23,326 nucleotides of DNA from a bacterium (GCA_963624325.1 CAVFPH010000019.1:3757-27082), one strand, 5' to 3'. Counted from the first letter of the stretch, positions 1,248-19,652 are shown. Numbers and translations are program-made. Notes: a model not told the origin generated them from the sequence alone.

Positions 1248-1306
1248 AGCCAAGTAGGGCAGCTGCTTTTTGCTGCCATCGCATGCGCAAAGCGGGAGAA
1301 GAAGCT

Positions 1307-1606
1307 ATGAGCTTAAACATTGAACAGCACATTTCGGAAAATGCCGTGATCATCCTATCGGGACGGCTGGATACATCCACGGCCCCTCAGCTGGAGGAGG
1401 CAATTGACCGGGCACTGCCGCAGATAGAATCCCTGACGCTGGACCTTGCCGATACGGAATATGTTTCCTCGGCAGGGCTTCGCGTTATTCTGAAGGCATA
1501 CAAGGCCCTTGTGCACAAGGGTGGACTAAAACTTAAGCATGTTCGGGAGAATGTGCGGGAAGTGCTTGATATTACCGGATTTTCGGATTTTCTTGTGATC
1601 GAATAG
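1307..1606 (+). CDS. STAS-domain protein (anti-sigma-factor antagonist family, SpoIIAA/RsbV-like)
   Basis: 99 aa from ATG 1307, with SD GGGAG 1294-1298 at 8-nt spacing. The ORF-track start 1283 has no SD. Motif DLADTEYVSSAGLRVILKAYK aligns with SpoIIAA DLSFMDSSGLGVILGRYK. The Ser aligned to the phosphosite is Ser55. Confidence 0.9.
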   Translation: MSLNIEQHISENAVIILSGRLDTSTAPQLEEAIDRALPQIESLTLDLADTEYVSSAGLRVILKAYKALVHKGGLKLKHVRENVREVLDITGFSDFLVIE

Positions 1607-1637
1607 TGCCTATCTGCCGATGATTGGGGAAAATCAG

Positions 1638-3776
1638 ATGAAAATACTTCAGATGGGAATTGCCACGATGCTTCCGGTGCTTGTCTCCGGATTGCTGATG
1701 CTGCTGACAAAAAAAGTCGCGCGGTTCAGGCAGAACATCGGCAAAAGAAATATGCTGGTGGGCGTGGCATTCGGCATGCTGGCAATTCTGGCCACGGAGT
1801 TCGGAGTTCCTGCCGGCGGCGGCGCGGTGATGAACGTGCGGGATGCCGCCCCGTTGTGCGCAGGGCTTTTCTTCGGCTGCCCCGCCGGCCTTGTTTCCGG
1901 CTTCATCGGCGGCCTGCATCGCTGGCTGTGCATGCATCAGGCAAACGAAATTACCCGCATGGCCTGCGCACTGTCCACTTTTCTTGCGGGAATTTTCAGC
2001 GATATGATGCGGCGGCAGATGTTTGAAAACCGCAATCCCGGGGTGCTTTCCTGCATCGGCATCGGTTCAACCATGGAAGTGCTGCATATGCTGCTGCTTC
2101 TGGCAACAAACCTTGCAAAAGTTTCCCATGCCTTTTCCTTTGTCCAGGCCAGCGCACTGCCCATGTGCATATGCAGCGGCATTTCCGTTGGATTGTCTTC
2201 CTTGATTTGCAGTCTTCCCATTACGCCGGACCGGCTTGAATTTAAATCCAAGAAAATCAGCCATGTCTTTGGCTTTTGGCTGCTGGTATGCGTTATTGTC
2301 GCTTTTTTGACAACCAGTGCTTTTACGCAGCAGGTTGTGTATCGTATCACAACCAACGATGCGGAGCTGTACCGCAAGGTGACGATCTATCTGGTTGCCT
2401 TTATCGAAATCCTGATTTATACGGCGCTTTTTATTCTGATTTATCAAATGCTGAAAAAAAAGATTGTCCGCAACCTGCAAAAGGTGAATGAAGGACTCAA
2501 CGCCATTACAAACGGAAACCTGAATACGGTGATTGATGTACGGGACTTTCGGGAATTTTCCGAGCTTTCGGACGATGTAAACGCCACGGTATCCTCCCTG
2601 AAGCACTATATCAAAGAGGCCGAGGAGCGCATCGACCAGGAGCTTGAAATCGCCAGGCAGATTCAGCATTCCGCCCTTCCATCTGTCTTTCCGCCCTATC
2701 CCGACAGGCAGGAGTTTGAACTGTTTGCGTCCATGAATTCGGCCAAGGAGGTCGGCGGGGATTTTTACGATTTCTATTTTGCGGGCGAAGATCAGCTGGC
2801 CTTTATGATTGCCGATGTATCCGGCAAGGGCATTCCAGCTGCCATGTTCATGATGACGGCAAAGACAACCATCAAGGATCTGGCAGAAAGCGGGCTTCCC
2901 ATCGACGAGGTGATGAACCGCACCAATGAGCGGCTGTGCGCCGGCAACGAGGCAGGCATGTTCGTAACTGCCTGGATGGGTATCCTGAATTTGAAAACAG
3001 GCCTTGTGCGCTTTGTCAATGCCGGGCATAATCCCCCCCTTGTGTGCTGCGGGGACAGCGATTATACGTATTTCAAAACCCGCCCCAATCTGGTGCTTGC
3101 CGGCATGGAGGGGGTTCGTTACCGCGCGGGCGAACTGCAGCTTTCTCCGGGTGATACGATTGTTTTGTACACTGACGGCGTAACCGAGGCCACCAACAGC
3201 AAGGGCAAGCTCTACGGCGAAGAGCGGCTGAACCGTGTGCTCAACACGTACAAAATCCTGCCCATTGAAGAATTATGTGAGCGTATTCGCGCCGATGTGG
3301 ATATTTTTGTGGATGATGCGCCGCAATTTGATGATATTACCCTGCTTGCACTGAAATATAAAGGTGGCGGCATGAAAAAGATGACACTTGAAGCAGCTGT
3401 TGACAACCTTGAACGCGTGACGGCGTTTGTGGATGATTTGCTGGAGGCGCATGGCTGCACGCCTCGCGCCCGCACGCAGATTGACGTGGCCATTGACGAA
3501 ATTTTCTGCAATATTGCCAGCTACGCCTATGCGCCGGGGAAAGGAAGCGTGACCGTGGCGGCCGATGTGCAAAACGGCGCCGCTGTAATTGAGTTTACGG
3601 ATGAAGGCATGCCCTTTAACCCCTTGGCGGCGGACGATCCCGATTTGACGCTGGATGCCGAGGAGCGCGAGGTCGGCGGTCTGGGCATCTATCTGGTAAA
3701 GAAAACGATGGATGATCTGCAGTATACCCGTGAAAACGGGAAAAACATCCTGAAAATCACCAAGCGCATCCAATGA
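1638..3776 (+). CDS. Membrane sensor fused to PP2C (SpoIIE/RsbU-type) phosphatase and RsbW/SpoIIAB-type serine kinase (HATPase_c_2): 5TMR-LYT-like TM domain - HAMP - PP2C - HATPase
   Basis: Single ORF. Alternative in-frame starts are 1620, 1638 and 1653; 1638 is preferred because of GGGGAA 7 nt upstream. The N-terminal ~280 aa are polytopic, with MNVRDAAPLCAGLFFGCPAGLVSGFIGGLHRW resembling LytS/YhcK 5TM receptors. HAMP-like segment: NLQKVNEGLNAITNGNLNTVIDVRDFREFSELSDDVNATVSSL. PP2C motifs: EVGGDFYDF, IADVSGKGIPAAMFM, YTDGVTEA, FDDITLLAL. C-terminal 135 aa carry the N-box DEIFCNIASYA, G1-like FTDEGMPFNP and G2 GGLGIYLV. Confidence 0.9.
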   Translation: MKILQMGIATMLPVLVSGLLMLLTKKVARFRQNIGKRNMLVGVAFGMLAILATEFGVPAGGGAVMNVRDAAPLCAGLFFGCPAGLVSGFIGGLHRWLCMHQANEITRMACALSTFLAGIFSDMMRRQMFENRNPGVLSCIGIGSTMEVLHMLLLLATNLAKVSHAFSFVQASALPMCICSGISVGLSSLICSLPITPDRLEFKSKKISHVFGFWLLVCVIVAFLTTSAFTQQVVYRITTNDAELYRKVTIYLVAFIEILIYTALFILIYQMLKKKIVRNLQKVNEGLNAITNGNLNTVIDVRDFREFSELSDDVNATVSSLKHYIKEAEERIDQELEIARQIQHSALPSVFPPYPDRQEFELFASMNSAKEVGGDFYDFYFAGEDQLAFMIADVSGKGIPAAMFMMTAKTTIKDLAESGLPIDEVMNRTNERLCAGNEAGMFVTAWMGILNLKTGLVRFVNAGHNPPLVCCGDSDYTYFKTRPNLVLAGMEGVRYRAGELQLSPGDTIVLYTDGVTEATNSKGKLYGEERLNRVLNTYKILPIEELCERIRADVDIFVDDAPQFDDITLLALKYKGGGMKKMTLEAAVDNLERVTAFVDDLLEAHGCTPRARTQIDVAIDEIFCNIASYAYAPGKGSVTVAADVQNGAAVIEFTDEGMPFNPLAADDPDLTLDAEEREVGGLGIYLVKKTMDDLQYTRENGKNILKITKRIQ

Positions 3777-3801
3777 ATTAGCAAAGGGAGAGGACAGAAC
3801 C

Positions 3802-4974
3802 ATGCTGAATGCAAGAAGCGAAAATGAAGTGCTGACAATTGCTCTTAGCGGGCATATTGATTCCACCAACGCACCTGAAATGGAAAAAGAGGCCGCCGAG
3901 CTTCGGCAGCAGTACCCGCACAAGGCGCTGGTTCTGGATATGGAGAACCTGGAATACATTTCCAGTGCCGGGCTGCGCGTGATCCTGCGCCTCCGCAAGC
4001 AGGAGGATAACCTGAGCCTGATCAACGTAAGCTCCTCGGTTTATGAGGTGCTGGATATGACGGGCTTTGCCGAGATGATGCCGGTGCAAAAGGCCTTTCG
4101 CCGCCTGAGCGTGGAGGGCTGCGAGGTAATCGGCCGCGGCGCCAACGGCAAGGTTTACCGCTTGGATCGGGATACCATCATCAAGGTCTACTATAACCCC
4201 GACAGCCTGCCCGACATTCGCCGGGAGCGTGAGCTGGCGCGCAAGGCGCTGGTGCTGGGCATCCCCACGGCCATTCCCTTTGACGTGGTTCGGGTGGGGG
4301 ACAGCTACGGCTCGGTGTTTGAGCTGCTCAACGCCAAGTCCTTTTCCAAGCTTCTTATTGCCGATCCCGACCATATGGATGACTATGTGTCCCAGTATGT
4401 TGACCTGCTGAAAACCATCCACAGCACGCACGTAAAGCCGGGCGAAATGCCGCGGATGAAGGATGTCGCCGTCGGCTGGGGCAATTTCCTGCGGGATTAT
4501 TTGCCTGAGGAACAGGCAGAACGCCTGTGCGCCCTGATTGCCGCTGTACCCGATCGGGATACCATGCTGCACGGGGATTATCACACCAACAACCTGATGA
4601 TGCAGGATGGCGAGGCCCTGCTGATTGATATGGATACCGTATGTGTCGGCCACCCGATTTTTGAACTGGCCAGCATGTATCTGGGCTTTGTGGGCTTTGG
4701 CGAGCTGGATCATGAGGTGACAAAAAAGTTCATGGGGCTGGATTATTCCCTCACCTGCGAATTCTGGCGCCGCAGCCTGCGCCGTTATCTGGGCGATGCC
4801 GATGAGAATAGCGTGCGCGCCGTTGAGCGCAAGGCCATGCTGATCGGCTATGCCCGCCTGATGCGCCGCACCATCCGCCGGGAGGCCGATACCGAAAGCG
4901 GCCGGGCCGTGATTGCATCCTGCAAAAAGCACATCGGGGAGCTGCTGCCCACAATCGACACGCTGGATTTTTAA
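3802..4974 (+). CDS. STAS domain fused to an aminoglycoside-phosphotransferase/choline-kinase/CotS-like (eukaryotic-like kinase fold) domain
   Basis: SD AGGGAGAGG lies 8 nt upstream. aa 1-~97 form a STAS domain (DMENLEYISSAGLRVILRLRK; Ser55 at nt 3964-3966). aa ~100-390 carry the Gly-loop IGRGANGKVY, the Lys in IIKVY, the catalytic loop LHGDYHTNNL (HxDxxxxN Brenner motif) and the metal-binding LIDMDT. Confidence 0.85.
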   Translation: MLNARSENEVLTIALSGHIDSTNAPEMEKEAAELRQQYPHKALVLDMENLEYISSAGLRVILRLRKQEDNLSLINVSSSVYEVLDMTGFAEMMPVQKAFRRLSVEGCEVIGRGANGKVYRLDRDTIIKVYYNPDSLPDIRRERELARKALVLGIPTAIPFDVVRVGDSYGSVFELLNAKSFSKLLIADPDHMDDYVSQYVDLLKTIHSTHVKPGEMPRMKDVAVGWGNFLRDYLPEEQAERLCALIAAVPDRDTMLHGDYHTNNLMMQDGEALLIDMDTVCVGHPIFELASMYLGFVGFGELDHEVTKKFMGLDYSLTCEFWRRSLRRYLGDADENSVRAVERKAMLIGYARLMRRTIRREADTESGRAVIASCKKHIGELLPTIDTLDF

Positions 4975-5021
4975 GCCGAAAAAAATTTTTCCTGCCGAAT
5001 TGTAAAAATCAAAATTTGCAC

Positions 5022-5050
5022 TTGCTTTTTTAGCGAATATCTGTTATGCT
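5022..5050 (+). promoter_or_regulatory. Candidate sigma-A promoter for the Cys-rich protein gene leader
   Basis: TTGCTT (5022-5027), a 17-nt spacer, then TATGCT (5045-5050), inside an AT-rich intergenic region. Confidence 0.4.
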
Positions 5051-5116
5051 CAATACGCGTACATGAACGAGATGTAACCAAGTGCAGTTAAACGTGAACA
5101 ATGAGGCAAGACAAAG

Positions 5117-5218
5117 ATGAAAACAATTCTTGATTTTCGGCATTCGATCCTTCAGGAGAAGGGCCTGCCCTTTTACCATACCGTCAAGCCGGTTGTGCCG
5201 CCGCGTGCGGGCTTTTAG
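5117..5218 (+). CDS. Candidate 33-codon leader uORF (MKTILDFRHSILQEKGLPFYHTVKPVVPPRAGF)
   Basis: ATG 5117 follows GAGG (5103-5106, 10-nt spacing). The stop TAG (5216-5218) falls in the loop of the downstream hairpin. It is too short for coding statistics, so this is speculative. Confidence 0.2.
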   Translation: MKTILDFRHSILQEKGLPFYHTVKPVVPPRAGF

Positions 5219-5244
5219 CCTGCGCCCGGCGGTTTTGCTTATTT
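5198..5244 (+). terminator. Intrinsic terminator-like hairpin in the leader of the Cys-rich gene (an attenuator, or the distal terminator of the upstream operon)
   Basis: CCGCCGCGTGCGGGC (5198-5212) / loop TTTTA / GCCTGCGCCCGGCGG (5218-5232): 14 of 15 positions pair (two G-U). It is followed by TTTTGCTTATTT. Confidence 0.6.
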
Positions 5245-5284
5245 CAGTTTCAAATACAGTTTTTTACAGCGAAAGGAGAAAGAA

Positions 5285-7939
5285 ATGAAAAAAACGCTGG
5301 CCATGCTGCTGACCCTGTGCCTGCTGGCATCCTGCCTGCCCATTGTTCACGCTGAGGATTGCCCCAAAGGCGGCGTCCACGACGTGACACAGGATATCGG
5401 CACCTACACCATCACCACCACCGATCCTACCTGCCAGAAAAAGGGCATGCGCATCTATACCTGCACCGAGTGCGGAGAGGTATTCTGGGAGGAAGGCTAC
5501 TTAGATCCGCTGGATCACAACTATCGGGAAACCGAACGCAAGAATCCTACCTGCACGGAAAACGGCTATGTTACCTATGCCTGTTCCAAGTGCCTTGACA
5601 GCTATACCGACATCCTTCAAGCCGAAGGGCATAATCAGAGCGGCCCTCTCTTCTTTCAGAAAGCTACTTGTACTCAACCGGAGACGGAATACGTGCAATG
5701 CACCAAGTGCCTGCAGCTGCAGGAGAACGGCACAACCGGAGAGGCCCTCGGCCATGACTATCGGCAAACGAACGTGGTTCCCTCCACCTGCGCGGTGGCA
5801 GGCTATATCACCTATACCTGCAACCGCTGCCCGGCTACCTATAATGATCCCTTGCCGCTGGCTGACCACAATTATGAGGTGAAGACTGCTCCCGCCACCT
5901 GCACCGAGGGCGAGCGGTGCTATGACGAGTGCAGCGAATGCGGCGATACAACAACGGGTGAATATGTCAGCGATCCCCTCGGCCATGATTATCATGTGCA
6001 GGAATTCAAGCACGTGGAACCCACCTGCGAGGAGCGCGGCAGCGATACCCACAAGTGCGCCCGCTGCGGTGAGGGCTACATGACCGCCCTGGGTGCCCTG
6101 GGCCATGATTGGACGACCACCGACGGCTATACCTACACCTGTACCCGCTGCGGCAAGGTCGAGGTGGATGAGGAGGCCAAGGCCGAGGCCGAGGCTACGC
6201 CGATCCCCAGCGCATACGGCAGTGCCAACGAAAAGGATGAGCTGACCGACCTGACGCTTACCAGCGCCATCAAGGAAGTGGGCGGCGGCTACTCCCTGCG
6301 CCGCGAGGAAGCCACGCTGAACAGCATCTCGCTGGCAGCCGAGCGCGACCCCGAAAATTCCTGGATGCGCCTGACCGCGGCGGATCCTGCCAGCCAGCTG
6401 GGCATGGTTTCCGGCTTTATCGGGGACGATATGACCATGACGCTGACCGAGAATGATAAGGAACTCAAAATCACGGGCGTCAGTATGAAGGATTCCGTGC
6501 TGACCATCACCACATCCTCCGGCGCTGTATTCGAGCTGAGCACGCCGGGCGTATCGCTGGGCTATACCGAGCTGGACAGCATTTCCGAGAAAAACCTGGA
6601 CCGCATCATATTCAAACGTTCGGGCGGCGTGCTGATGATCGATTTCGGCTCCGCTGAGGCGATGAAGGCGGAGGTTGCGGCCGCGCTTGCCACCCCCGCG
6701 CCCACATACCATGTTGAGATTAAATTCTCCAAGGCGAACATTACGACCCCCACTCCCACGCCCGCGCCCATATACGTGGTTAACATCACATTCAGCAAGG
6801 CGAACATTACAAGAGAGGAGCCGTCCGCTACCCCCGAACCGACGGTCGCAATCGTGCCGGAAGAAGAGTGCAGGATTGTTATCATCGCATACGACGACGA
6901 GGAGGATGTCGCGAAATACGAGCGCTCCATCTGCCCGCATCAGTGGGAGTATGCCGAAGAGAACACTTGCCAGGCATCCAGAACATGCAAGCTCTGCGGA
7001 AAGCAGGAGGATACCCCGTCGGAGCACTGCTGGTACGCATGGAATAAGGTTGTAGACGGCAAGCAGTATGATATGAACGTAACATCGATCACTGATGCAA
7101 ACGGTTTTGTCATCACTGACTATGTGGTGTCTACATACATTTTGAAATGCCGCTACTGCGATGCCACGATGGAGGAAACCTCGCTCAATCAGGTGGCGGG
7201 CAAGTGTACGCATCCCCGGCTGAAAGAGAAAACAACAGCATACGTAAATGACGGCGATGATGTAAGAAAATATTGGTGTACCAACGCGATGCAGTGTCCG
7301 GATTGCCATTCACAAGTCAAGGCTGTCGGTCACAACTGGAAAATTACCGGCGAGAGCGGCGATTATTACACGGCCGTTTGCCAGCGCTGCGGAAAAACCA
7401 TCAACGCAAACAAGAAATACTACAACAGCGCAAAAGGCAAGCTGGACACAAGTGAAATGTCCTGCGCGGATGACCCCAACAACCATCGCTGGGTGACTGT
7501 CGAGTCCAACGGCTGCAAACAGACGCTTGTGTGCAGCAACTGCGGCAAGCAGACAACAACGGACCACGACTGGGAGGTTACCAAACAGCTGTGCAACTAT
7601 ACAGCCGTATGCCGGAAGTGCGGGAAAACGGAAAAGGTAACCATCCACCCCGAAATCGATGTAGAGTCAATCAACCGGGGAGAAACAGTAAAAAAATGGT
7701 GGATCGACCAGCATTACGAATATAATGTATATGTGACATATGCATATTGTACAAGCTGCGGACTGACATTAGCCAGCGAAAAAGCTGAAGAATACAAAAT
7801 TAGCTTTAATGAATATAAAAACAGTGATTACGAGACGAAAAAGATAGAGAAGCTGAAGAGGAAATTCGGTGTCGATAAATTCCCTGCCACCTATACATTG
7901 CCCGTTTATCTAACGGACGGCTACATTAACTCCAAATAA
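5285..7939 (+). CDS. Large secreted or lipoprotein Cys-rich repeat protein (884 aa), family unassigned
   Basis: SD GGAG lies 6 nt upstream. Signal peptide MKKTLAMLLTLCLLASCLPIVHA has a lipobox-like LASC (Cys17) and an alternative AxA-type site VHA/ED. About 45 Cys in the mature protein fall in regular CxxC-containing modules. There is no LPXTG, SLH or C-terminal TM segment. Confidence 0.85.
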   Translation: MKKTLAMLLTLCLLASCLPIVHAEDCPKGGVHDVTQDIGTYTITTTDPTCQKKGMRIYTCTECGEVFWEEGYLDPLDHNYRETERKNPTCTENGYVTYACSKCLDSYTDILQAEGHNQSGPLFFQKATCTQPETEYVQCTKCLQLQENGTTGEALGHDYRQTNVVPSTCAVAGYITYTCNRCPATYNDPLPLADHNYEVKTAPATCTEGERCYDECSECGDTTTGEYVSDPLGHDYHVQEFKHVEPTCEERGSDTHKCARCGEGYMTALGALGHDWTTTDGYTYTCTRCGKVEVDEEAKAEAEATPIPSAYGSANEKDELTDLTLTSAIKEVGGGYSLRREEATLNSISLAAERDPENSWMRLTAADPASQLGMVSGFIGDDMTMTLTENDKELKITGVSMKDSVLTITTSSGAVFELSTPGVSLGYTELDSISEKNLDRIIFKRSGGVLMIDFGSAEAMKAEVAAALATPAPTYHVEIKFSKANITTPTPTPAPIYVVNITFSKANITREEPSATPEPTVAIVPEEECRIVIIAYDDEEDVAKYERSICPHQWEYAEENTCQASRTCKLCGKQEDTPSEHCWYAWNKVVDGKQYDMNVTSITDANGFVITDYVVSTYILKCRYCDATMEETSLNQVAGKCTHPRLKEKTTAYVNDGDDVRKYWCTNAMQCPDCHSQVKAVGHNWKITGESGDYYTAVCQRCGKTINANKKYYNSAKGKLDTSEMSCADDPNNHRWVTVESNGCKQTLVCSNCGKQTTTDHDWEVTKQLCNYTAVCRKCGKTEKVTIHPEIDVESINRGETVKKWWIDQHYEYNVYVTYAYCTSCGLTLASEKAEEYKISFNEYKNSDYETKKIEKLKRKFGVDKFPATYTLPVYLTDGYINSK
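5360..6154 (+). repeat. Protein-level tandem array: 6 full + 1 partial ~40-aa modules, [GD]-H-[DN]-[YW]...P-[ST]-C-x9-C-x2-C
   Basis: Cys triplets at aa (50,60,63), (90,100,103), (129,139,142), (169,179,182), (206,216,219), (248,258,261) and the partial (286,289). Each is followed 13 or 15 aa later by the His of DHNY/GHNQ/GHDY/DHNY/GHDY/GHDW. The DNA copies have diverged, with no long exact nucleotide repeats. Confidence 0.7.
6704..6835 (+). repeat. Two tandem 22-aa units (TYHVEIKFSKANITTPTPTPAP / IYVVNITFSKANITREEPSATP) in a Pro/Thr-rich linker
   Basis: The exact 14-nt AAGGCGAACATTAC occurs at 6731-6744 and again at 6797-6810 (66-nt period). Both copies encode FSKANIT. Confidence 0.6.
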
Positions 7940-7950
7940 CCGGCCTCATG

Positions 7951-7992
7951 GGGCGGCACTCCACGCGGGTGCCGCCCGTCTTTTTGCGTTTT
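7951..7992 (+). terminator. Rho-independent terminator of the Cys-rich protein gene
   Basis: GGGCGGCAC (7951-7959) / 9-nt loop / GTGCCGCCC (7969-7977) is a perfect 9-bp GC-rich stem, followed by GTCTTTTTGCGTTTT. Confidence 0.75.
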
Positions 7993-8060: not shown

Positions 8061-8933
8061 ATGCAGAGTATGACCGGCTACGGCCGAGAACAGGTAGTGC
8101 GGGACGGACGGGAAATGACGGTGGAGCTGAAATCCGTCAACCACCGCTTTCTGGATATTTCCCTTCGGATGCCCAGGGTGCTCAGCTTTGCGGAGGAGGA
8201 TATCCGCCGTCAGCTGGGCGCGGCAATGAAGCGCGGGCATGTGGATGTATTTGTTACCTATCGCAACGCCCGCGCGGACGCAAAAAAGGTATCAGTGGAT
8301 ACCGCGCTGGCAAGGGCGTACCGCGATGCCATGCGGGAATTGAGCGAGGCGGTGGGCGTCCCCTGCGATGTGCCGCTGGATCGCTATGCGCAGCTGCCCG
8401 ATGTGCTGACCGTGACCGAAAACGAGGAGGACTGCGAGGCGGTGGGCGCTCTGCTGCGGGATGCCGCGGCGCTGGCGCTGGAGGATATGATCCGCATGCG
8501 CAGCCGCGAGGGCGAGGCGCTGAAGGCAGATTTGACGGTGCATTTGCAGCTGCTGGAGCAACTGCGGCAGCAGATCCTTGCCCGTGCGCCCGGCGTTTCG
8601 GAGGACTATCGACAGCGCCTGATGCAAAGGATGAATGAGCTTGGCGTAACGGAGATTGATCCTTCCCGCATTGTGCAGGAGGTGGCCATCTTTGCCGACC
8701 GTGCCGCCATTGATGAGGAGCTGAGCCGCCTGGACAGCCATATCCGCCAGGCCTATCTGCTCATGGACGGCGAGGCGGAATGCGGCAGCAAGCTGAACTT
8801 CCTGGTGCAGGAAATGAACCGCGAGGTAAACACCATCGGCTCCAAGGCGCTGGATGCCGAAATTGCCCGCCTGGTGGTGGATGCGAAATCCGAAATCGAA
8901 AAGCTGCGGGAGCAGATTCAAAACGTGGAGTAA
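8061..8933 (+). CDS. yicC: YicC/YloC-family stress-induced protein
   Basis: N-terminus MQSMTGYGRE...ELKSVNHRFLD and C-terminal EMNREVNTIGSKA are YicC N-terminal and DUF1732 hallmarks. SD GGGAGGGTG lies upstream. Confidence 0.9.
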   Translation: MQSMTGYGREQVVRDGREMTVELKSVNHRFLDISLRMPRVLSFAEEDIRRQLGAAMKRGHVDVFVTYRNARADAKKVSVDTALARAYRDAMRELSEAVGVPCDVPLDRYAQLPDVLTVTENEEDCEAVGALLRDAAALALEDMIRMRSREGEALKADLTVHLQLLEQLRQQILARAPGVSEDYRQRLMQRMNELGVTEIDPSRIVQEVAIFADRAAIDEELSRLDSHIRQAYLLMDGEAECGSKLNFLVQEMNREVNTIGSKALDAEIARLVVDAKSEIEKLREQIQNVE

Positions 8934-8958
8934 TCCACCGCTGTAAAGGAGCGTTTAT

Positions 8959-9564
8959 ATGCGCGAGGTACGCAAGGGCATGCTGCTGGTGATCTCCGGC
9001 CCCTCCGGCGCGGGCAAGGGCACGCTGTATACAAGGCTGCTGAACGAAGACCCCAGCATGACATTTTCGGTAAGCTACGCAACCCGTTCCCCCCGCCCGG
9101 GCGAAATAGACGGCAATGATTACTACTTTGTGGATGAGGACAAGTTTCAGCAGATGGTGGCAGCCGACGGCTTTCTGGAGTATGCTTCGGTGCACGGCCA
9201 TCACTACGGCACCCCGCGTCAGCCTGTGCTGGATGCGCTGGCAAAGGGGAAAAACGTGATGCTGGATATCGACCCGCAGGGCGCGCTGCAGGTAATGGCC
9301 AGCATGCCCGGCTGCGTATCGGTGTTCATCCTGCCCCCTTCCTTTGCCGAGCTTCGCCGCCGACTGGAAGGCAGGCATACCGAGCAGCAGGAGGAGATAG
9401 AACGCCGCCTGCGCAACGCAAGGGGCGAGGTGGCACAGAAGGAAAAGTACCAGTATCTGCTGATCAATGACGACATCGAAACCGCCTACGAAGCCCTGAA
9501 GAACATCGTGGCGGCCGAAAAACAGCGCTCCGTGCGCTATTTCCCCGAAATCGGGGAAGAATAA
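8959..9564 (+). CDS. gmk: Guanylate kinase
   Basis: P-loop ISGPSGAGKGTL, then SYATRSPRPGEIDGNDYYFV. SD AAGGAG. Confidence 0.95.
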   Translation: MREVRKGMLLVISGPSGAGKGTLYTRLLNEDPSMTFSVSYATRSPRPGEIDGNDYYFVDEDKFQQMVAADGFLEYASVHGHHYGTPRQPVLDALAKGKNVMLDIDPQGALQVMASMPGCVSVFILPPSFAELRRRLEGRHTEQQEEIERRLRNARGEVAQKEKYQYLLINDDIETAYEALKNIVAAEKQRSVRYFPEIGEE

Positions 9565-9603
9565 GCCAACAAAACCAATATAATATAAACGGAGGAAAAC
9601 AAA

Positions 9604-9819
9604 ATGTCTGTAAACAAGCCCGGCATCGTGGAACTGAGCAAAAAGGTAGACTGCCGCTATACCCTGGTGGTGGAAACGTCCAAGCGTGCGCGCCAGCTGG
9701 TTGCGGGCGCACAGCCCTTGATCGATCCCAAGGATATGAAGCCCGTCGGCATCGCCATTGAGGAGATCAACCGCGGACTGCTGACCTATCGCCGCAACCT
9801 GGAAGACGAGGAGCAGTAA
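9604..9819 (+). CDS. rpoZ: DNA-directed RNA polymerase subunit omega
   Basis: 71 aa, with CRYTLVVETSKRARQL typical of omega. It sits between gmk and coaBC as in Bacillus. SD GGAGG. Confidence 0.85.
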   Translation: MSVNKPGIVELSKKVDCRYTLVVETSKRARQLVAGAQPLIDPKDMKPVGIAIEEINRGLLTYRRNLEDEEQ

Positions 9820-9821
9820 AA

Positions 9822-11024
9822 ATGGGCGTACTGGACGGGAAGACAATTGTATACGGTGTAACGGGCGGCATCGCAGCCTACAAGAGCTGCGAGGCTGTTT
9901 CGCGCCTTAAAAAGATGGGCGCTGCGGTGTGCGTGATCATGACGAAAAACGCCACCGAGTTTGTTGCGCCCCTGACCTTTGAAACCCTGTCCAATCAGCC
10001 CTGCGTGACGGATACCTTTGCAAGGCCGGAGCGCTGGGAGGTGGAGCATGTCTCCCTTGCCAAGCGCGCGGATCTGTTTGTCATTGCGCCCGCTACCGCC
10101 AACATCATGGCAAAGCTGGCGCACGGCATTGCCGATGATATGCTGTCCACCACCTGCCTTGCCACCCGCGCGCCCATTCTGATTGCCCCGGCCATGAACA
10201 CGGGCATGTGGCAGAACCCTGCCACGCAGGAAAACGCAAAGATCCTGCAGGTACGCGGCATGCAGTTTATCGGCCCGGAGGGCGGATACCTGGCATGCGG
10301 TGATGTGGGCGCGGGACGCATGAGCGAGCCGGAACAGATTGTGCAGCGCTGCGTGGAGATGCTGACGAAGGACAAGGATCTGCAGGGCGTGCATGTGCTT
10401 GTAACCGCCGGTCCCACCTGCGAAAACATTGACCCCGTGCGCTTTATCACCAACCGCTCCAGCGGCAAGATGGGCTATGCGCTGGCCGAGGCTGCCTGCC
10501 GCCGCGGGGCCGAGGTAACGCTGGTAACGGGACCCGTGAGCCTGACGCCGCCTGCCAATGTCAAAACGGTATCGGTGCGCACAACGGAGGATCTGCTGGA
10601 GCAGATGCTGCTGCTGGCTCCCCGGCAGGATGTGATCATCCAGGCTGCCGCTCCGGCGGACTACCGCCCGCAGCAGGCTGCATCGCAAAAGCTGAAAAAG
10701 CAGGGGGACGGCACATTGAACATCTCCCTTGTATCCACACCCGATGTGGCAAAGCGGGTGGGGGAGATCAAAAAGGACGGGCAGATCCTGGTCGGCTTTG
10801 CCGCCGAGACCGAGGATGCCATTGAAAATGCACGCAAAAAGCTGGACAGCAAGCATCTGGATATGATCGTGGCCAATGATGTAACGTTGCCCGGCGCGGG
10901 CTTTGACGTGGATACCAACATTGCCGCGATCATCACCCGCGACAAAATCGAGAACCTGCCCATCATGACAAAAAAGGCGCTGGCGGATGAGATACTCAGC
11001 CGCGTTGCGGCACTGCGGGGATAA
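9822..11024 (+). CDS. coaBC: Bifunctional phosphopantothenoylcysteine decarboxylase / phosphopantothenate-cysteine ligase
   Basis: 400 aa. N-terminal flavoprotein motif GVTGGIAAYK...APATANIMAKLAHGIADD. C-terminal ligase part ITNRSSGKMG...AAAPADYRP. Confidence 0.95.
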   Translation: MGVLDGKTIVYGVTGGIAAYKSCEAVSRLKKMGAAVCVIMTKNATEFVAPLTFETLSNQPCVTDTFARPERWEVEHVSLAKRADLFVIAPATANIMAKLAHGIADDMLSTTCLATRAPILIAPAMNTGMWQNPATQENAKILQVRGMQFIGPEGGYLACGDVGAGRMSEPEQIVQRCVEMLTKDKDLQGVHVLVTAGPTCENIDPVRFITNRSSGKMGYALAEAACRRGAEVTLVTGPVSLTPPANVKTVSVRTTEDLLEQMLLLAPRQDVIIQAAAPADYRPQQAASQKLKKQGDGTLNISLVSTPDVAKRVGEIKKDGQILVGFAAETEDAIENARKKLDSKHLDMIVANDVTLPGAGFDVDTNIAAIITRDKIENLPIMTKKALADEILSRVAALRG

Positions 11025-11026
11025 GC

Positions 11027-13252
11027 ATGTACGCACAGGTTATCGTAGATATCGCCAGCGAAAGCGTGGACCGGGTGTTTACCTACCGCGCGCCGCAGGA
11101 CATGAACATTCTGCGCGGCATGCGTGTCAGCGTGCCCTTCGGCCCGCGCAGCACGGAAGGGTATGTGCTGGGGCTGTCACACAGCGCACAGCTGGAGGAA
11201 AGCCGCATACGGGATATCATCAAACCCTTGGAAGACTATCCTGCCTTGCTGCCGCAGCTGATTGATCTGGCGCAGGAAATTGCGAAAAGCACGCACTGCC
11301 CCTTGGCCGAGGCTCTGCACCTGATGCTGCCCGCACAGATGCGCGGCGGTCGGGTGAAGATCAAGACCGAGACGGCTGCCCGGCTGCTGATATCGGGCAG
11401 CGAATTGCAGACGGCCATCACAGGGTGCAAAAACGCAAAAAAACGGCGTTTGCTGCTGGAAATGCTCTCCGATGGAAAACCGTATGCGGTGTCGGAGCTG
11501 AATCAGCTGGTAAAGGATGCGCGGACAGGACTGAATGATCTGTGCCGGCGCGGATACGCGGAGCTCATTGAACAGGAAATACTGCGTTCTCCCTATCCGG
11601 ACACGCTGACACCGACGCCTGATCCCGTGCTGACAGATGAGCAGCAGGAGGCTCTGTCCGAGCTTTTGCCTGCCATCGACCGCGGAATGGGCGCTTTTTT
11701 GCTGCATGGCGTTACCGGAAGCGGGAAATCCGAGGTCTTTATTCGCGCCGTCCGCCGCTGCTTGCAGCGCGGGCGCGGTGCCATCGTGCTGGTGCCGGAA
11801 ATCGTGCTGACCCCGCAGATGGTTACCTGGTTTCGGGCACGCTTTGGCGATGTGGCGGCAGTGCTGCACTCACGCTTGTCGGCAGGGGAGCGCTTTGACG
11901 AATGGCGCCGTATCCGCATGGGGTACGCCCGCGTGGTGATCGGCGCGCGCTCCGCTGTGTTTGCGCCTGTGGATCACCTGGGGCTGATCGTGGTGGATGA
12001 GGAGCATGAGCAAAGCTACCAGAGCGAGCATTATCCGCAGTACGATGCGCGCGAAATTGCCGCATCCCGTGCAAAGCGGGAAGGTGCGGCCCTGGTGCTG
12101 GCCAGCGCAACCCCATCCGTTTTGAGCTTTGCGCGCATGGAGCGCGGCGACTATACGCTGCTGGAAATGCCGCATCGCGTGCACAACCGTCCGCTGCCCG
12201 AGGTAACGGTGGCGGACATGCGGCAGGAGCTGCGGCTGGGCAACAAGGGCATTTTTTCAACGGCGCTGATGCAGCGCATGGATGACTGCATCGCCTCCGG
12301 CAGGCAGATGATGCTTTTTATCAACCGCCGCGGGTATGCGCAGTTTGTAAACTGCCGATCCTGCGGTGAGGCCATCCGCTGCTCGCAGTGCGATGTAACC
12401 ATGACCTACCACGAGACGGATCACCGCCTGCACTGTCATTGGTGCGGTGCCTCCATTCCCATGCCCGACAAATGCCCCTCCTGCGGGAGCATTTACATCC
12501 GTGCCTGCGGCATCGGCACGCAGCGGGTGGAAACGGAAGTGAAAAAGCGCTATCCGAACATCGGCGTCATCCGCATGGATATGGATACCACCGCCACCAA
12601 GGATGCCCACGCGCAGCTGCTCAGCCGTTTTCGTGCCCGTGAGGCGCAGGTGCTGATCGGCACACAGATGATTGCCAAGGGACTCGATTTCCCAGAGGTG
12701 ACGCTGGTTGGGGCGATATTGGCCGATACATCCCTGAACATGCCCGATTACCGCGCGCCGGAAAGGACGTTCCAGCTGCTTACCCAGGTAGCGGGGCGTG
12801 CAGGACGTGCCGATTATCCTGGTCAGGTGGTGATTCAAACCTACATGCCGGAGCATTACGCCATCCGCGCGGCAGCGGCACAGGATTACCGTGCGTTTTA
12901 CCGGATGGAGTTTGACCGCCGAAAGAAAGATCTGTATCCGCCCTTTACCATGATGGCAAGGCTTCTGTGCACGGCGGATAATGCCGAGATCGCACAGGCG
13001 GTCAGCTGTCAGCTGCTTGACAATTTAAATGAATTTCTTGCAAAAAATCCATCTCTGCGCAGGCGCATCCTGTTCATGCGGCAGGATGAAGCGCCGCTCA
13101 AATTCCTGCGCGGCAGGCATCGCGCGCAGGTGCTGCTGAAGTTGCTTGAGCATCCAGACAGCCGTGCAGCACTGGATTACATGCAGGATCTTTCTCAGCA
13201 GGCGTGGCCCTGCGATGTATTACTGGAAATCAATCCCGCCTCCATGGCGTAA
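11027..13252 (+). CDS. priA: Primosomal replication restart helicase PriA
   Basis: Walker A GVTGSGKSEV, DEEH box VVDEEHE, and the Cys-rich insert CRSCGEAIRCSQCDVTMTYH...LHCHWCG...CPSCGS. Confidence 0.95.
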   Translation: MYAQVIVDIASESVDRVFTYRAPQDMNILRGMRVSVPFGPRSTEGYVLGLSHSAQLEESRIRDIIKPLEDYPALLPQLIDLAQEIAKSTHCPLAEALHLMLPAQMRGGRVKIKTETAARLLISGSELQTAITGCKNAKKRRLLLEMLSDGKPYAVSELNQLVKDARTGLNDLCRRGYAELIEQEILRSPYPDTLTPTPDPVLTDEQQEALSELLPAIDRGMGAFLLHGVTGSGKSEVFIRAVRRCLQRGRGAIVLVPEIVLTPQMVTWFRARFGDVAAVLHSRLSAGERFDEWRRIRMGYARVVIGARSAVFAPVDHLGLIVVDEEHEQSYQSEHYPQYDAREIAASRAKREGAALVLASATPSVLSFARMERGDYTLLEMPHRVHNRPLPEVTVADMRQELRLGNKGIFSTALMQRMDDCIASGRQMMLFINRRGYAQFVNCRSCGEAIRCSQCDVTMTYHETDHRLHCHWCGASIPMPDKCPSCGSIYIRACGIGTQRVETEVKKRYPNIGVIRMDMDTTATKDAHAQLLSRFRAREAQVLIGTQMIAKGLDFPEVTLVGAILADTSLNMPDYRAPERTFQLLTQVAGRAGRADYPGQVVIQTYMPEHYAIRAAAAQDYRAFYRMEFDRRKKDLYPPFTMMARLLCTADNAEIAQAVSCQLLDNLNEFLAKNPSLRRRILFMRQDEAPLKFLRGRHRAQVLLKLLEHPDSRAALDYMQDLSQQAWPCDVLLEINPASMA

Positions 13253-13264
13253 AGGAGAATCAAC

Positions 13265-13750
13265 ATGGCAGTAAAAGAAATCCTCAAAATCGGCAATGAT
13301 ACCCTGCGGAAAACCTCGCACCGCGTTGAAAAGTTCAACCTGCGCCTGTGGCTGCTGCTGCGCGACATGGCGGAAACCATGTATGAGGCGGACGGCGTGG
13401 GTCTTGCGGGCCCGCAGGTGGGCATTCTGCGCCGCGTGGTTGTGATTGACGTGCAGGATGATCACGGCCTGATTGAACTGGTCAATCCCGAAATCATCGC
13501 AGCGGAGGGGGAACAGGGCGGCCCCGAGGGCTGCCTGAGCGTACCCGGACGGCAGGGATTTGTCTATCGCCCGCAGAAGGTTACCGTGCGTGCGCAGGAT
13601 CGCCATGGCAAGGTATTTGAGCTGACGGGCGAAGGCTTGCTGGCGCGCGCATTGTGCCACGAGATTGACCATCTGGACGGCAGAATGTACGTGGATATTG
13701 AGGATCACGAGATCGTGAACGAAGAAGAGGACGGGGAGGAGCAGGAATAA
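13265..13750 (+). CDS. def: Peptide deformylase
   Basis: Motifs GVGLAGPQVG, EGCLSVPG and HEIDHLDG. It ends in an acidic tail, NEEEDGEEQE. Confidence 0.95.
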   Translation: MAVKEILKIGNDTLRKTSHRVEKFNLRLWLLLRDMAETMYEADGVGLAGPQVGILRRVVVIDVQDDHGLIELVNPEIIAAEGEQGGPEGCLSVPGRQGFVYRPQKVTVRAQDRHGKVFELTGEGLLARALCHEIDHLDGRMYVDIEDHEIVNEEEDGEEQE

Positions 13751-14694
13751 TGCCGCTTCGCGTAGTATTTATGGGTACGCCCGATTACGGCGTGCCGTCG
13801 CTGGAGGCACTCATCCGCGCCGGATACGATGTGGTGGGGGTGTTCTGCCAGCCGGATAAACCCTCGGGCAGAGGCAAGAAAATTACCCCCTGTCCCGTTA
13901 AGCAGTGCGCCGCTGCGCATGGTATTCCCGTCGTGCAGCCCCTAAAAACGCGGGTGGACGGCGTGGAGCCGCTGCGGGCGCTGGCACCCGATCTGTGCGT
14001 TACGGCAGCGTTCGGCCATATTCTGTCGCAGGAAGTGCTGGACATCCCGCGCATCGGTACGGTCAATGTGCATGCCTCCCTGCTGCCCAAGTACCGCGGC
14101 AGCGCGCCGGTCAATTGGGCATTGATTCAGGGAGAAACGGTCACGGGTGTTACCACCATGATGACCGATAAGGGCATGGACACGGGAGATATCCTGCTCA
14201 AACGCGAAGTTGAAATCCTGCCCGATGAAACAGCGGGGGAACTGGTGGAACGCCTGGCCAAGGTGGGCGCGGAATTGCTGATTGAAACGCTGCAGGCCAT
14301 CGAACGCGGCGATTGTCCCCGTGAAAAGCAGGATGAAAGCCTGGCAAGCTACTATCCGCTGCTGAAAAAGGAAATGGGCCGTATGGACTTTTCAAAAACG
14401 GCGCGGGAGCTGGTCAATTTTGTCCGCGGAATGACGCCCTGGCCGGGTGCTTATGCCGGTCCGTATAAAGTGCTGACGGCACGGGCGGAGGCGTATCAAG
14501 GCACAGAGCAGCCCGGCACGATTCTGCACGCAGATGCCAAGAACGGTCTTTGGATACGCACGGCGGACGGAGCACTGCGCCTGGAGCGCATACAGGCACC
14601 GGGCGGCAAGCCCATGAACGACTGCGATTATCTGCGCGGTCATCAGGTGGAGGCGGGCAAGCTGATTGCGCCCGAAGAAATGCATGCAGAATAA
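13750..14694 (+). CDS. fmt: Methionyl-tRNA formyltransferase
   Basis: RVVFMGTPDYGVPSLEAL and NVHASLLPKYRGSAPVNWA. TAATG overlap with the def stop. Confidence 0.95.
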   Translation: MPLRVVFMGTPDYGVPSLEALIRAGYDVVGVFCQPDKPSGRGKKITPCPVKQCAAAHGIPVVQPLKTRVDGVEPLRALAPDLCVTAAFGHILSQEVLDIPRIGTVNVHASLLPKYRGSAPVNWALIQGETVTGVTTMMTDKGMDTGDILLKREVEILPDETAGELVERLAKVGAELLIETLQAIERGDCPREKQDESLASYYPLLKKEMGRMDFSKTARELVNFVRGMTPWPGAYAGPYKVLTARAEAYQGTEQPGTILHADAKNGLWIRTADGALRLERIQAPGGKPMNDCDYLRGHQVEAGKLIAPEEMHAE

Positions 14695-16195
14695 GCCAAA
14701 CAACGGCGGCAAAGCCGCCCGCCCGACATTTCGCGGATCCGATACAAGAAAGCCGAACACGGGCCGCACACCCCAATCCGGGCTTGCAAAGCCCGCACAG
14801 CGTCCGGCTCAGGCAAGGCCCGAGCTTCGCAGCACACCCCGCCCGCAGGGCGTCCCCGCGAAAAGCAATGCCAATGCCCGCCTGGTTGCGCTGAATGTTC
14901 TATGTGATGTGCTTGAAAATGATGCCTATGCCAGCCTGTCCTTGGATGATCGTCTGGGCAGCGTCAACCTGAACCAGCTGGATCGCCGCCTGTGCGCCAG
15001 CATTGTGTACAGGACGCTGGAAAACCTGTACTATCTGGATTATGCCCTGGGGCAGTTTCTGCAGGATGCGGATGCACTGAACATGAAAGTGCGCAATATC
15101 CTGCGCACGGCTGCCTGTCAGATCCTGCTGCATGATCGCGTCCCGGACAGCGCGGCGGTCAACGAGGCCGTCAAGCTTACCCGGGAGGTGCGTTTGGATC
15201 CCTTTGCGGGCATGGTCAACGCCGTGCTTCGCCGTCTGACGGATCAAAAGGAAAACCTTCAGTGGCCCAAGCCCGATGAAGGCGCACATTATTTATCCGT
15301 GATGTATTCCATGCCCGAATGGCTGGCGCAGTGCCTGATAGACGATTACGGCAGGGAAGAAGCCGAAAAAATCGCCGCGTACCGCACGGAAAAGCACTTT
15401 ATCACCATCCGGGCAACCTACGGCGGACGGGAAGACGACTTTGCAAAAATGCTCTCCCGCAAGGTATGGGAAACACAAAAGGGCATCATGCCGGGTGCCG
15501 TTCATGTCTTCGGTGCAATGCAGATTGCAAGGGACAGTGACTATATTAAAGGCACATATTCCATTCAGGGGGAAGGCAGCATGCTGGCGGCTGCGGCTGT
15601 AGATGCCAAGCACGGCATGAACGTGCTGGATTGCTGCGCTGCTCCCGGCGGAAAGACTGCCTATATTGCGGAACGCATGGAGGGCACGGGGCGCGTGTAC
15701 GCGTGGGATCTGCATCCTCATCGCGTGGAACTGATCCGCGCCGCTATGCAGCGCCTGCATCTGGATAACGTTCGGACAGCCGCACGGGATGCCGCGCAGC
15801 TGCGCGAAGATCTTGTGCAGAGCATGGACGCGGTATTGCTGGATGCTCCCTGCAGCGGACTCGGTGTTATGGACGACAAGCCGGATGTAAAATACCGCCA
15901 TACGAAAGAATCCCTTGCGGAGCTGTGCGAAACGCAGCAAAAGCTGCTGGATACCTGCTGCCGTTATGTTCGGCCGGGCGGCACGCTGGTGTACTCCACC
16001 TGCAGCCTGCTAAAAGACGAAAACGAACGGCAGATCAGCCGCTTCCTGCGTGAACATCCCGAGTTTGAGATTGCTCCGCTGCCCGATGCGATTCCCGCTG
16101 CTCTGCGCGCCCATTACGGCGAATACGGCCTGCAGCTGCTGCCTTATCGTGACGGCGTAGAGGGCTTCTTTGTGGCGTGCATGAAGCGCGTTTAA
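14684..16195 (+). CDS. rsmB: 16S rRNA (cytosine967-C5)-methyltransferase RsmB/Sun with a ~64-aa basic N-terminal extension
   Basis: NusB-like domain from NARLVALNVLCDVLENDAYASLSL. SAM motif DCCAAPGGKT and catalytic DAPCSGLGV...YSTCS. ATG 14684 overlaps the fmt stop; an in-frame TTG at 14666 is an alternative start. Confidence 0.9.
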   Translation: MQNKPNNGGKAARPTFRGSDTRKPNTGRTPQSGLAKPAQRPAQARPELRSTPRPQGVPAKSNANARLVALNVLCDVLENDAYASLSLDDRLGSVNLNQLDRRLCASIVYRTLENLYYLDYALGQFLQDADALNMKVRNILRTAACQILLHDRVPDSAAVNEAVKLTREVRLDPFAGMVNAVLRRLTDQKENLQWPKPDEGAHYLSVMYSMPEWLAQCLIDDYGREEAEKIAAYRTEKHFITIRATYGGREDDFAKMLSRKVWETQKGIMPGAVHVFGAMQIARDSDYIKGTYSIQGEGSMLAAAAVDAKHGMNVLDCCAAPGGKTAYIAERMEGTGRVYAWDLHPHRVELIRAAMQRLHLDNVRTAARDAAQLREDLVQSMDAVLLDAPCSGLGVMDDKPDVKYRHTKESLAELCETQQKLLDTCCRYVRPGGTLVYSTCSLLKDENERQISRFLREHPEFEIAPLPDAIPAALRAHYGEYGLQLLPYRDGVEGFFVACMKRV

Positions 16196-16206
16196 GGACG
16201 GAAAGC

Positions 16207-17256: not shown

Positions 17257-17280
17257 GTGCTTCTTGGGAGGTGACAGTCC

Positions 17281-19643: not shown

Positions 19644-19652
19644 GGAAATTGA

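Follow-up and report, generated by a model that had tools for sequence, protein, structure and literature searches.

The 23,326-nucleotide stretch of bacterial DNA analysed here (GCA_963624325.1 CAVFPH010000019.1:3757-27082; hereafter the window) carries at 5285..7939 (+) a single open reading frame (ORF) for a protein of 884 amino acids (aa), which lies between a small signalling cluster and a run of housekeeping genes. Two blocks of repeated Cys/His modules make up much of this protein, and a long Cys-free centre separates them. We suggest, with moderate confidence, that it is a secreted protein of zinc-bridged beta-sheet modules whose function is that of a structural rod. We infer the identity of the metal, the geometry of the sites, the shape of the rod and its role as a spacer.

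A motif scan bore out the periodicity of three Cys and one His on which an earlier interpretation of this DNA, the sequence-only reading, was built, together with the alternating 15/13 spacing, the Cys-free centre and the existence of a second block. The spacing C-x9-C-x2-C occurs exactly six times, starting at C50, C90, C129, C169, C206 and C248, and an isolated CxxC at 286/289 closes the N-terminal block. His78, 116, 157, 195, 234 and 274 stand 15, 13, 15, 13, 15 and 13 residues past the third Cys; most of the His motifs fit the pattern proposed for them, [GD]-H-[DN]-[YW], and one, GHNQ, falls outside it. There is then no Cys between C289 and C529 (residues 290-528; 239 aa). The C-terminal block holds GHNW (682), NHRW (733) and DHDW (760), CxxC at 622, 699 and 822, and four copies of C-x5-C-x2-C; these had been described as all ending in G-K, which is true of the copies at 562, 744 and 770 but not of the one at 665, where H-S follows. 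Not one of 20,000 shuffles of the protein sequence, with its 47 Cys, attained any of the observed motif counts (C-x9-C-x2-C, six observed against a shuffle mean of 0.12 and maximum of 3; C-x5-C-x2-C, four against a mean of 0.12; CxxC, 14 against a mean of 2.4). The alternation of the His spacing reflects two module sub-types: the even modules M2, M4 and M6 are canonical and 39-42% identical to one another, and the odd modules are divergent (15-28% identity) and two residues longer after the CxxC knuckle.

How the ligands are grouped can be approached through the predicted structure. An AlphaFold2 (AF2) model of aa 24-300, made from a 38-sequence alignment, has a mean pLDDT score (local distance difference test, as predicted) of 92.7 and gives every module three strands, b1 to b3. 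The His lies two residues before b1, the first Cys (C1) in the b1-b2 turn, the second (C2) at the end of b2 and the third (C3) in the b2-b3 turn. With strands running up and down in this way, one end of the sheet holds the His and the C2/C3 knuckle, and the opposite end holds C1. A metal common to C1 and the knuckle in the same module would thus be out of reach, and C1 would instead face the next module. The sequence-only reading had taken the linear periodicity of three Cys and one His as a string of beads, in which each module of about 40 aa would be a self-contained zinc knuckle or ribbon made of its own three Cys and the His that follows. The high-confidence model speaks against such beads, since it places C1 and the knuckle at opposite ends of a sheet 6-7 residues long.

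The ends of arrays and the covariation between modules of the wider family, described further below, bear on the same question. Arrays almost always open with H-x-[YWF], and their last module keeps its His and CxxC without C1 or any later His; C1 is missing from 273 of 524 last modules but from only 182 of 3,443 internal ones. The seventh module of our protein, which had been called partial, is thus a normal C1-less array cap. After an internal module without C1, H-x-H opens the following one in 91 of 185 cases, compared with 53 of 3,297 after a module that has C1 (odds ratio 59 across 36 proteins), whereas C1 loss brings no enrichment of H-x-H at the start of the module's own sequence (3/185 versus 138/3,297). 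Compensation by the following H-x-H implies one site for C1(i) and His(i+1). The 2His+2Cys site that then stands in for 3Cys+His has the same form as in the IgA protease of Thomasclavelia ramosa, to which we return. A second test concerns the knuckle variant CxC, which is accompanied by H-x-H at the start of its own module in 134 of 471 cases (136 of 3,505 otherwise; odds ratio 9.9, 66 proteins) and shows no association with H-x-H at the start of the next (12/471 versus 60/3,505, p 0.2), so that His(i) and C2/C3(i) also appear to share a site.

Taken together, strand topology, array ends and the two covariation tests point to interleaved sites of the form {C1(i-1), H(i), C2(i), C3(i)} at the interfaces between modules. 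The compensation of C1 by H-x-H is also compatible with beads on a string, where C1(i) and H(i+1) would likewise meet in one site. Self-contained beads are nevertheless improbable, as the knuckle covaries with the His of its own module and not with the one that follows, and as His-first arrays and C1-less caps would leave the ligands H32/C26 and C286/C289 as orphans. A further grouping, in which the His and the three Cys of the same module form one site, was rejected by the strand mapping and by the covariation that accompanies C1 loss.

We therefore favor interleaved sites, in which a structural metal, most likely Zn(II), in tetrahedral coordination would join adjacent modules: module i-1 would supply C1 from its b1-b2 turn, and module i the His where its b1 begins and the CxxC knuckle of its b2-b3 turn. 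In this grammar a starter pair, [C/H]-x(1-6)-H, would begin each array, and a C1-less cap would end it. The N-terminal block fits as one rod of seven modules, in which the starter C26/H32 is followed by six modules with a C1 and then by the cap (H274, C286, C289). Its predicted sites are {C26,H32,C60,C63}, {C50,H78,C100,C103}, {C90,H116,C139,C142}, {C129,H157,C179,C182}, {C169,H195,C216,C219}, {C206,H234,C258,C261} and {C248,H274,C286,C289}. In support of the starter, orthologues of the protein have their own directly after the predicted signal-peptide cut, in the form H-x-H (EHVHTY), C-x-H (CEHEW) or C-x5-H.

By the same grammar the C-terminal block would be three short arrays, each with a C-x(1-6)-H starter (C550/H552, C641/H643 and C727/H734) and a C1-less cap. 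The predicted sites are {C550,H552,C568,C571}, {C562,H581,C622,C625}, {C641,H643,C671,C674}, {C665,H683,C699,C702}, {C727,H734,C750,C753}, {C744,H761,C776,C779} and {C770,H788,C822,C825}; the assignment in the first sub-array is one that the array grammar suggests. AF2 places three-stranded sheets at aa 685-840 (pLDDT 70-85), one of them at aa 685-709 in the second sub-array. Eight orthologues keep, without exception, the 22 Cys from C550 onwards and the block's seven His, and the module profile described below shows the same for the N-terminal type, so that the conservation of Cys and His positions expected by the sequence-only reading was found in both blocks. Across the protein the interleaved grammar uses 42 Cys and 14 His in 14 complete CCCH sites per chain. 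The Cys outside the scheme are C12 and C17 in the signal peptide, C212, C529, which is not conserved, and C582. The last of these (window 7028-7030) stands beside His581 in the motif E-H-C-W and is invariant in all eight orthologues.

The two blocks had been ascribed to two classes of modules, a division that did not survive profile comparison. In the arrays of 46 other proteins we counted 165 modules of the short-hairpin type, C-x5-C-x2-C. In hhalign comparisons, the C-block modules match these short-hairpin modules with a probability of 89% (E 2.5e-6), and the short-hairpin modules match the canonical module with a probability of 95% (E 5.8e-8), their hairpin being four residues shorter. Judged by these profile links, the second class is a short-hairpin variant within one module type or superfamily. 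In our proposal, both blocks would accordingly be arrays of one type of module in one secreted protein. The coordinates of all these elements are collected in the table.

Table. Features of the gene and its flanks in window coordinates, with the TetR-family genes of orthologous loci in the coordinates of those loci.
Feature	Coordinates	Strand	Description	Score
Upstream intergenic region	4975..5284	+	310 bp, AT-richer, GC 0.43; presumed own promoter region	
Signal peptide	5285..5353	+	aa 1-23 (MKKTLAMLLTLCLLASCLPIVHA); signal peptidase I cut after VHA likely; LASC a possible lipobox, not conserved	
Module M1	5360..5509	+	aa 26-75; starter pair C26/H32; C50 = C1; knuckle C60-x2-C63	profile 25 bits
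Module M2	5510..5623	+	aa 76-113; H78, C90, C100-x2-C103; canonical	profile 52.9 bits
Module M3	5624..5746	+	aa 114-154; H116, C129, C139-x2-C142; divergent odd type without hairpin Gly	
Module M4	5747..5860	+	aa 155-192; H157, C169, C179-x2-C182	profile 46.5 bits
Module M5	5861..5977	+	aa 193-231; H195, C206, C216-x2-C219, extra C212	profile 22 bits
Module M6	5978..6097	+	aa 232-271; H234, C248, C258-x2-C261	profile 43 bits
Cap module M7	6098..6160	+	aa 272-292; H274, no C1, C286-x2-C289; invariant in orthologues	12.6 bits
Helical linker	6161..6199	+	aa 293-305 (EVDEEAKAEAEAT), Glu/Ala-rich; short helix ending the AF2 model	
Cys-free central region	6200..6694	+	aa 306-470, beta-rich; invariant residues cluster at aa 388-454	pLDDT 50-65
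Pro/Thr linkers	6695..6868	+	aa 471-528; two copies of strand element Y-x-V-x-I-x-F-S-K-A-N-I-T	
C-block sub-array 1	6926..7168	+	starter C550-x-H552; C562-x5-C568-x2-C571; H581(C582); cap C622-x2-C625	
C-block sub-array 2	7199..7414	+	starter C641-x-H643; C665-x5-C671-x2-C674; H683; cap C699-x2-C702	
C-block sub-array 3	7457..7774	+	starter C727-x6-H734; C744-x5-C750-x2-C753; H761; C770-x5-C776-x2-C779; H788; long-hairpin cap ending C822-x2-C825	
C-terminal tail and stop codon	7775..7939	+	aa 831-884, conserved (...KL.K.FGVD.FP.T.TLPVYLTDGYI), non-hydrophobic	
Terminator-like hairpin	7951..7987	+	intrinsic type; 11-bp stem (9 G-C pairs) and T-run, 12 nt past the stop	
TetR gene, locus L002	6258-6944			
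TetR gene, locus L003	926-1687			
TetR gene, locus L004	90-887			
TetR gene, locus L005	4559-5248			
TetR gene, locus L008	7275-7964			

The module belongs to a family that is very large and has no model in Pfam or NCBIfam. At E <= 10 the protein matched only noise in a 2025 copy of Pfam-A (SH3b_P2, E 1.3) and in NCBIfam (ExtJ, E 0.1, matching the signal peptide alone), and in relatives that carry 25-39 modules the module was likewise left without a Pfam family, the matches to zf_UBZ, zf-CHY, DUF7836 and SAM_LFY being sub-threshold, zinc-finger-like noise. A search with the full-length protein returned more than 2,000 homologues, most of them covering the N-terminal block alone (24-30% of the query) and typically proteins of 1,000-1,500 aa. 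The 120 homologues listed contain 1,117 modules, overwhelmingly of the form C-x9-C-x2-C-x12/13-H, and the domains that co-occur with the module include GH20, F5/8-C, S8 peptidase, CAP, fn3, FIVAR, SLH, cohesin and dockerin.

A profile made from 110 diverse modules, in which H, C1, C2 and C3 are invariant and a Gly exceeds 90%, recognizes all seven modules of the N-terminal block, including the cap. Searched against 1.84 billion representatives of 50%-identity clusters, it matched 63,706, 36,488 and 11,793 representatives at E <= 1e-3, 1e-10 and 1e-30, respectively. Proteins that bear the module reach 7,583 aa and up to 92 matched stretches each, 224 of 260 sampled family members have signal-peptide-like N-termini, and source databases name them "hypothetical protein" or "cell wall-binding repeat-containing protein" [Ruminococcus sp.]. 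Both the homologue search and this survey, which had been recommended with the first description of the gene, agree with the statement made there that the consensus recurs in large surface proteins of Firmicutes, here Clostridia. The accompanying statement that the protein could not be attached to a characterized family is right as far as curated models go, but it overlooks one described relative.

That relative is the T. ramosa IgA protease. A search of the PDB with the single sequence gave only weak C2H2 knuckle matches, and the module profile and the seven-module array profile found PDB chain 9qa6_A ("IgA protease") with E values of 6.3e-7 and 1.7e-7. The matched residues, 844-985 and 1089-1143, are the published ranges of two domains named ZBD1/ZBD2 in one 2025 report (PLoS Pathog; PMC12237041) and CTD2/CTD4 in another (PNAS; PMC12415215). 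In both studies, these domains are AlphaFold-modelled chains of three-stranded antiparallel sheets with putative structural zinc sites, mostly 2His+2Cys and in one case 3Cys+1His, at the interfaces of successive sheets, and they have no disulfides and no structural homologue (PMC12237041; PMC12415215). The model of ZBD1 is about 110 A long and has three subdomains (PMC12237041). CTD2 is a fully extended rod by small-angle X-ray scattering, and it is suggested in that work that a "metal-associated periscope domain" holds the protease out from the wall (PMC12415215). We found no other description of the module in the literature. By profile homology, then, our protein is of a kind of module first described in 2025, in one protein and from predicted structures.

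The two proteins have in common units built as three-stranded sheets (in the AF2 model of aa 24-300) and a detectable sequence homology. They differ in that the M64 IgA protease of T. ramosa has two to three subdomains per domain, mostly with 2His+2Cys sites, while the window protein would have seven plus seven modules, all Cys3His. In the protease, the ZBDs have a catalytic domain on one side and an LPXTG-type anchor on the other, neither of which is recognizable here. Published work on the protease gives no family size, no starter/internal/cap grammar and no interleaving rule. What is new in our analysis is the size of the family, this grammar, the interleaved Cys3His rule, the merging of the two supposed classes and the prediction of 14 zinc ions. 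In 9qa6_A we also noted, at 844-880, an H-x-H starter and a full C1...CxxC module (EHTHNL...AATC...YYTCDGC) ahead of the published ZBD1 boundary at E879; the array seems to start inside the region that the paper assigns to the preceding O-beta domain.

The IgA protease also bears on the nature of the modules. A protein that is rich in Cys and exported might be expected to hold its modules together by disulfide knots, within or between modules and without metal. Such knots are very unlikely here, given that each unit pairs three Cys with one strictly conserved His, that a His takes the place of a lost Cys, which fits metal ligation and not disulfides, that the homologous protease has no disulfides and needs a reducing agent to stay monodisperse (PMC12237041), and that the hosts are gut anaerobes. 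Nor do the modules resemble familiar zinc folds beyond the knuckle. They share with C2H2 fingers, rubredoxin and zinc ribbons a local G-x-x-x-Y-x-C-x-x-C-G hairpin-knuckle with weak sequence matches. A C2H2 finger, however, has a beta-beta-alpha fold and H-x3-5-H, while the window modules have one His per unit, no helix and are exported; it was rejected as a candidate, with no Pfam match at E <= 10 and PDB matches confined to the knuckle. Zinc ribbons and rubredoxin have two CxxC knuckles per unit where the module has one, and were set aside because the two remaining ligands of the module, one Cys and one His, come from different turns or modules. Foldseek comparison of the models of aa 24-300 and 296-884 with the PDB, a check proposed from the outset, found no solved homologue and nothing meaningful (best E 2.7e-3, TM score 0.09, beta-propellers). 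On the predicted structures, the modules are best read as three-stranded sheets bridged by zinc, not as zinc ribbons or classical knuckles. Of the earlier suggestion of zinc-ribbon or knuckle-like or disulfide-knotted units, the small structural metal sites, as the best reading, and the export stand, the ribbon or knuckle fold does not, and the disulfide knots are unlikely.

Two other roles for the metal sites can be envisaged. The local match of the profile to the rubredoxin CxxC knuckle, and the ability of Cys3His sites to bind [2Fe-2S], could suggest redox-active iron or iron-sulfur centers, rubredoxin-like or of the mitoNEET Cys3His kind, that form an extracellular electron conduit. This seems extremely improbable: the rubredoxin match covers about 12 residues of the knuckle only, the sites would be about one module apart (compare the ZBD1 model, about 110 A for three subdomains; PMC12237041), far beyond electron-tunnelling distance, and there are no respiratory or cytochrome genes near the window gene or at the orthologous loci. 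The 14 predicted sites per chain and the abundance of the family might alternatively indicate extracellular zinc buffering or scavenging, with the arrays as an exchangeable store in a role comparable to that of the streptococcal Pht proteins. We consider this, too, very doubtful, since fully coordinated Cys3His sites normally have a structural role and bind their metal with high affinity, loss of metal from sites that bridge the fold would unfold the rod, and no zinc-uptake genes lie near the window gene or at the orthologous loci.

We favor instead a mechanical role, in which the modules would be rigid, protease-resistant spacers forming rods of the "periscope" type. Metal-joined rods would suit a reducing, anaerobic exterior, in which disulfides are unavailable. 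The G5-E periscope stalks of SasG and Aap (Whelan et al., PMC9704523) are likewise rod-like tandem arrays of single-layer beta-sheet modules on Gram-positive surfaces with variable repeat number. They have no sequence relation to the window protein, however, and fold without metal; in Aap, zinc mediates dimerization via His/acidic sites. Periscope proteins have near-identical DNA repeats behind their variation in length, whereas the modules of the window gene are 15-42% identical and form no DNA tandem repeat (two hexamer runs in the linkers were the only tandem repeats found in the gene). Copy-number variation between close relatives, a further property of periscope proteins, is seen among our orthologues, which have from 3 to 14 N-block modules with the rest of the protein conserved; one of them (P0005) carries recent segmental duplications.

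That the arrays are themselves functional, as adhesin- or lectin-like repeats that bind a ligand, is rather unlikely but deserves mention. Many giant surface proteins consist for the most part of arrays, of up to 92 modules, the exposed faces of the single-layer sheets are variable, and the C-terminal domains of the IgA protease modulate cleavage in vitro (PMC12237041). Yet it is typical of stalks that only ligand and turn residues are conserved while module number varies freely, and that arrays are paired with many unrelated catalytic or anchoring domains (GH20, S8, CAP, SLH, cohesin, dockerin). If the arrays are spacers, the specific activity of the protein would probably reside in its conserved Cys-free central region and/or its C-terminal tail.

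These parts of the protein have a narrow distribution. The centre and C-terminal half (aa 296-884) have only seven homologues among 5.8 billion proteins, and six loci in five metagenome-assembled genomes (MAGs) among 185,579 species genomes; the MAGs belong to Anaerovoracaceae, Lachnospiraceae, Anaerotignum and two further bacteria. The most conserved stretch among the orthologues is the Cys-free, beta-rich segment aa 388-454, and the Y-x-V-x-I-x-F-S-K-A-N-I-T element occurs in one or two copies, each flanked by Pro/Thr linkers. Foldseek comparison of the AF2 model (pLDDT 50-65) with the PDB gave no structural match for the central region; a homology search with aa 318-470 returned nothing and is uninformative, because not even the protein itself was recovered. 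In one Anaerovoracaceae MAG (L001, 10001-12859 and 14472-16844), a 790-aa paralogue lies two genes downstream of the 952-aa orthologue, with a flavodoxin-like gene between them; its length equals that of the homologue P0007 (790 aa).

The protein is probably exported by the Sec route with a signal peptide cut by signal peptidase I, and not as a lipoprotein. L14-A-S-C17 fits the lipobox [LVI][ASTVI][GAS]C in the window protein only; six orthologues have no Cys at this position, and their signal peptides end in ...PMANA or PMVQA, sites of the A-x-A kind used by signal peptidase I. A signal peptidase I substrate is likelier because Cys17 is not conserved. The sequence-only reading, which spoke of a signal or lipoprotein peptide, was thus right about the export signal, and its lipoprotein option has become less likely. 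As had been stated, a Pfam scan and a motif and hydrophobicity check uncovered no LPXTG, SLH or transmembrane element beyond the signal peptide. We would nevertheless expect the protein to be retained at the surface.

Upstream of the gene (window 1283-4974, +) is a partner-switching-like cluster with unusual fusions: a 107-aa STAS protein, a 718-aa protein that unites a 5TMR-LYT membrane sensor (five transmembrane segments), a SpoIIE/PP2C phosphatase and an anti-sigma-kinase-like HATPase_c_2 domain in one chain, and a 390-aa fusion of STAS with an aminoglycoside-phosphotransferase-type kinase (APH). Downstream, the gene adjoins the upstream edge of a conserved housekeeping run (window 8061-22010, +) of yicC, gmk, coaBC, priA, def, fmt, rsmB, rlmN, a PP2C phosphatase, a PASTA Ser/Thr kinase, rsgA and ksgA. 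To judge by the 310-bp spacer on one side and the strong terminator-like hairpin on the other, the gene appears to stand alone. A strict sigma-70 scan found no site in 4975..5284. The same intergenic region contains a 33-codon ORF (MKTILDFRHSILQEKGLPFYHTVKPVVPPRAGF; window 5117-5218, +) with GAGG upstream, and a 602-aa ORF runs antisense to most of the gene (window 5501-7309, -), probably as a by-product of codon composition. The C-terminal block has a GC content of 0.48, compared with about 0.60 in the neighbours.

Upstream sequence is available for five of the orthologous loci. In each of them the gene comes directly after a TetR-family gene on the same strand; these TetR genes are orthologous to one another (70-100% identity), and the wider neighbourhoods of the loci are unrelated. 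No TetR homologue or remnant was found in the window, and the 33-codon ORF has no similarity to the TetR proteins of the orthologues. Because the orthologues follow a TetR gene and the window lacks one, the position after the signalling operon is not conserved. From this comparison the placement is probably not meaningful, and the link to the operon that had been entertained loses its footing, the more so as the gene has its own terminator.

Several points weigh against the picture of zinc-bridged rods. The IgA-protease domains are themselves AlphaFold models. The predicted site geometry is deduced from strand topology and covariation, and the covariation counts include related repeats, so that p-values are inflated, although the effect sizes are large and many proteins contribute to them. 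In the AF2 model aa 24-37, which hold C26 and H32, are disordered, and the starter site is tentative for this reason. The C-terminal half is modelled poorly (aa 296-884, eight sequences, pLDDT 54.8), so its seven sites derive from the residue pattern. C582 is the only conserved Cys that the 14-site scheme leaves unused. Since the C2H2 knuckle is matched by the profile as well, the weak tail of the 63,706 profile matches may include eukaryotic C2H2 poly-zinc-finger proteins. Finally, periscope proteins have an anchor and a functional domain at opposite ends, whereas here no anchor (LPXTG motif, or hydrophobic segment beyond the signal peptide) was found, the N-terminus is free, and the N-terminal rod is not obviously placed between anchor and head.

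If zinc bridges the modules as we propose, the stoichiometry would be about seven zinc ions for aa 24-300 and about 14 for the mature protein. We can also imagine, as a speculative and distinctly less secure extension, that the Cys3His module is the majority form of a very large family of extracellular "zinc-stapled" rods in gut Clostridia, with the ZBDs of the IgA protease as its divergent 2His+2Cys offshoot, and that, because every joint would share one metal, the stiffness, length and protease resistance of the rods could be switched by zinc availability or thiol oxidation in the gut. Were this true, 14-zinc proteins of this type would amount to a sizeable collective extracellular zinc pool, and the rods of the narrow, TetR-linked family would present a new central domain.

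For the gene itself, our analysis suggests a lineage-restricted secreted protein that is not tied to the neighbouring signalling operon. Its module is among the commonest unannotated building blocks of the large secreted proteins of gut Clostridia, and the starter/internal/cap grammar offers a basis for a family model. The interleaved rule, in which each metal would join one module to the next, would explain how anaerobes could build rigid extracellular stalks without disulfides.

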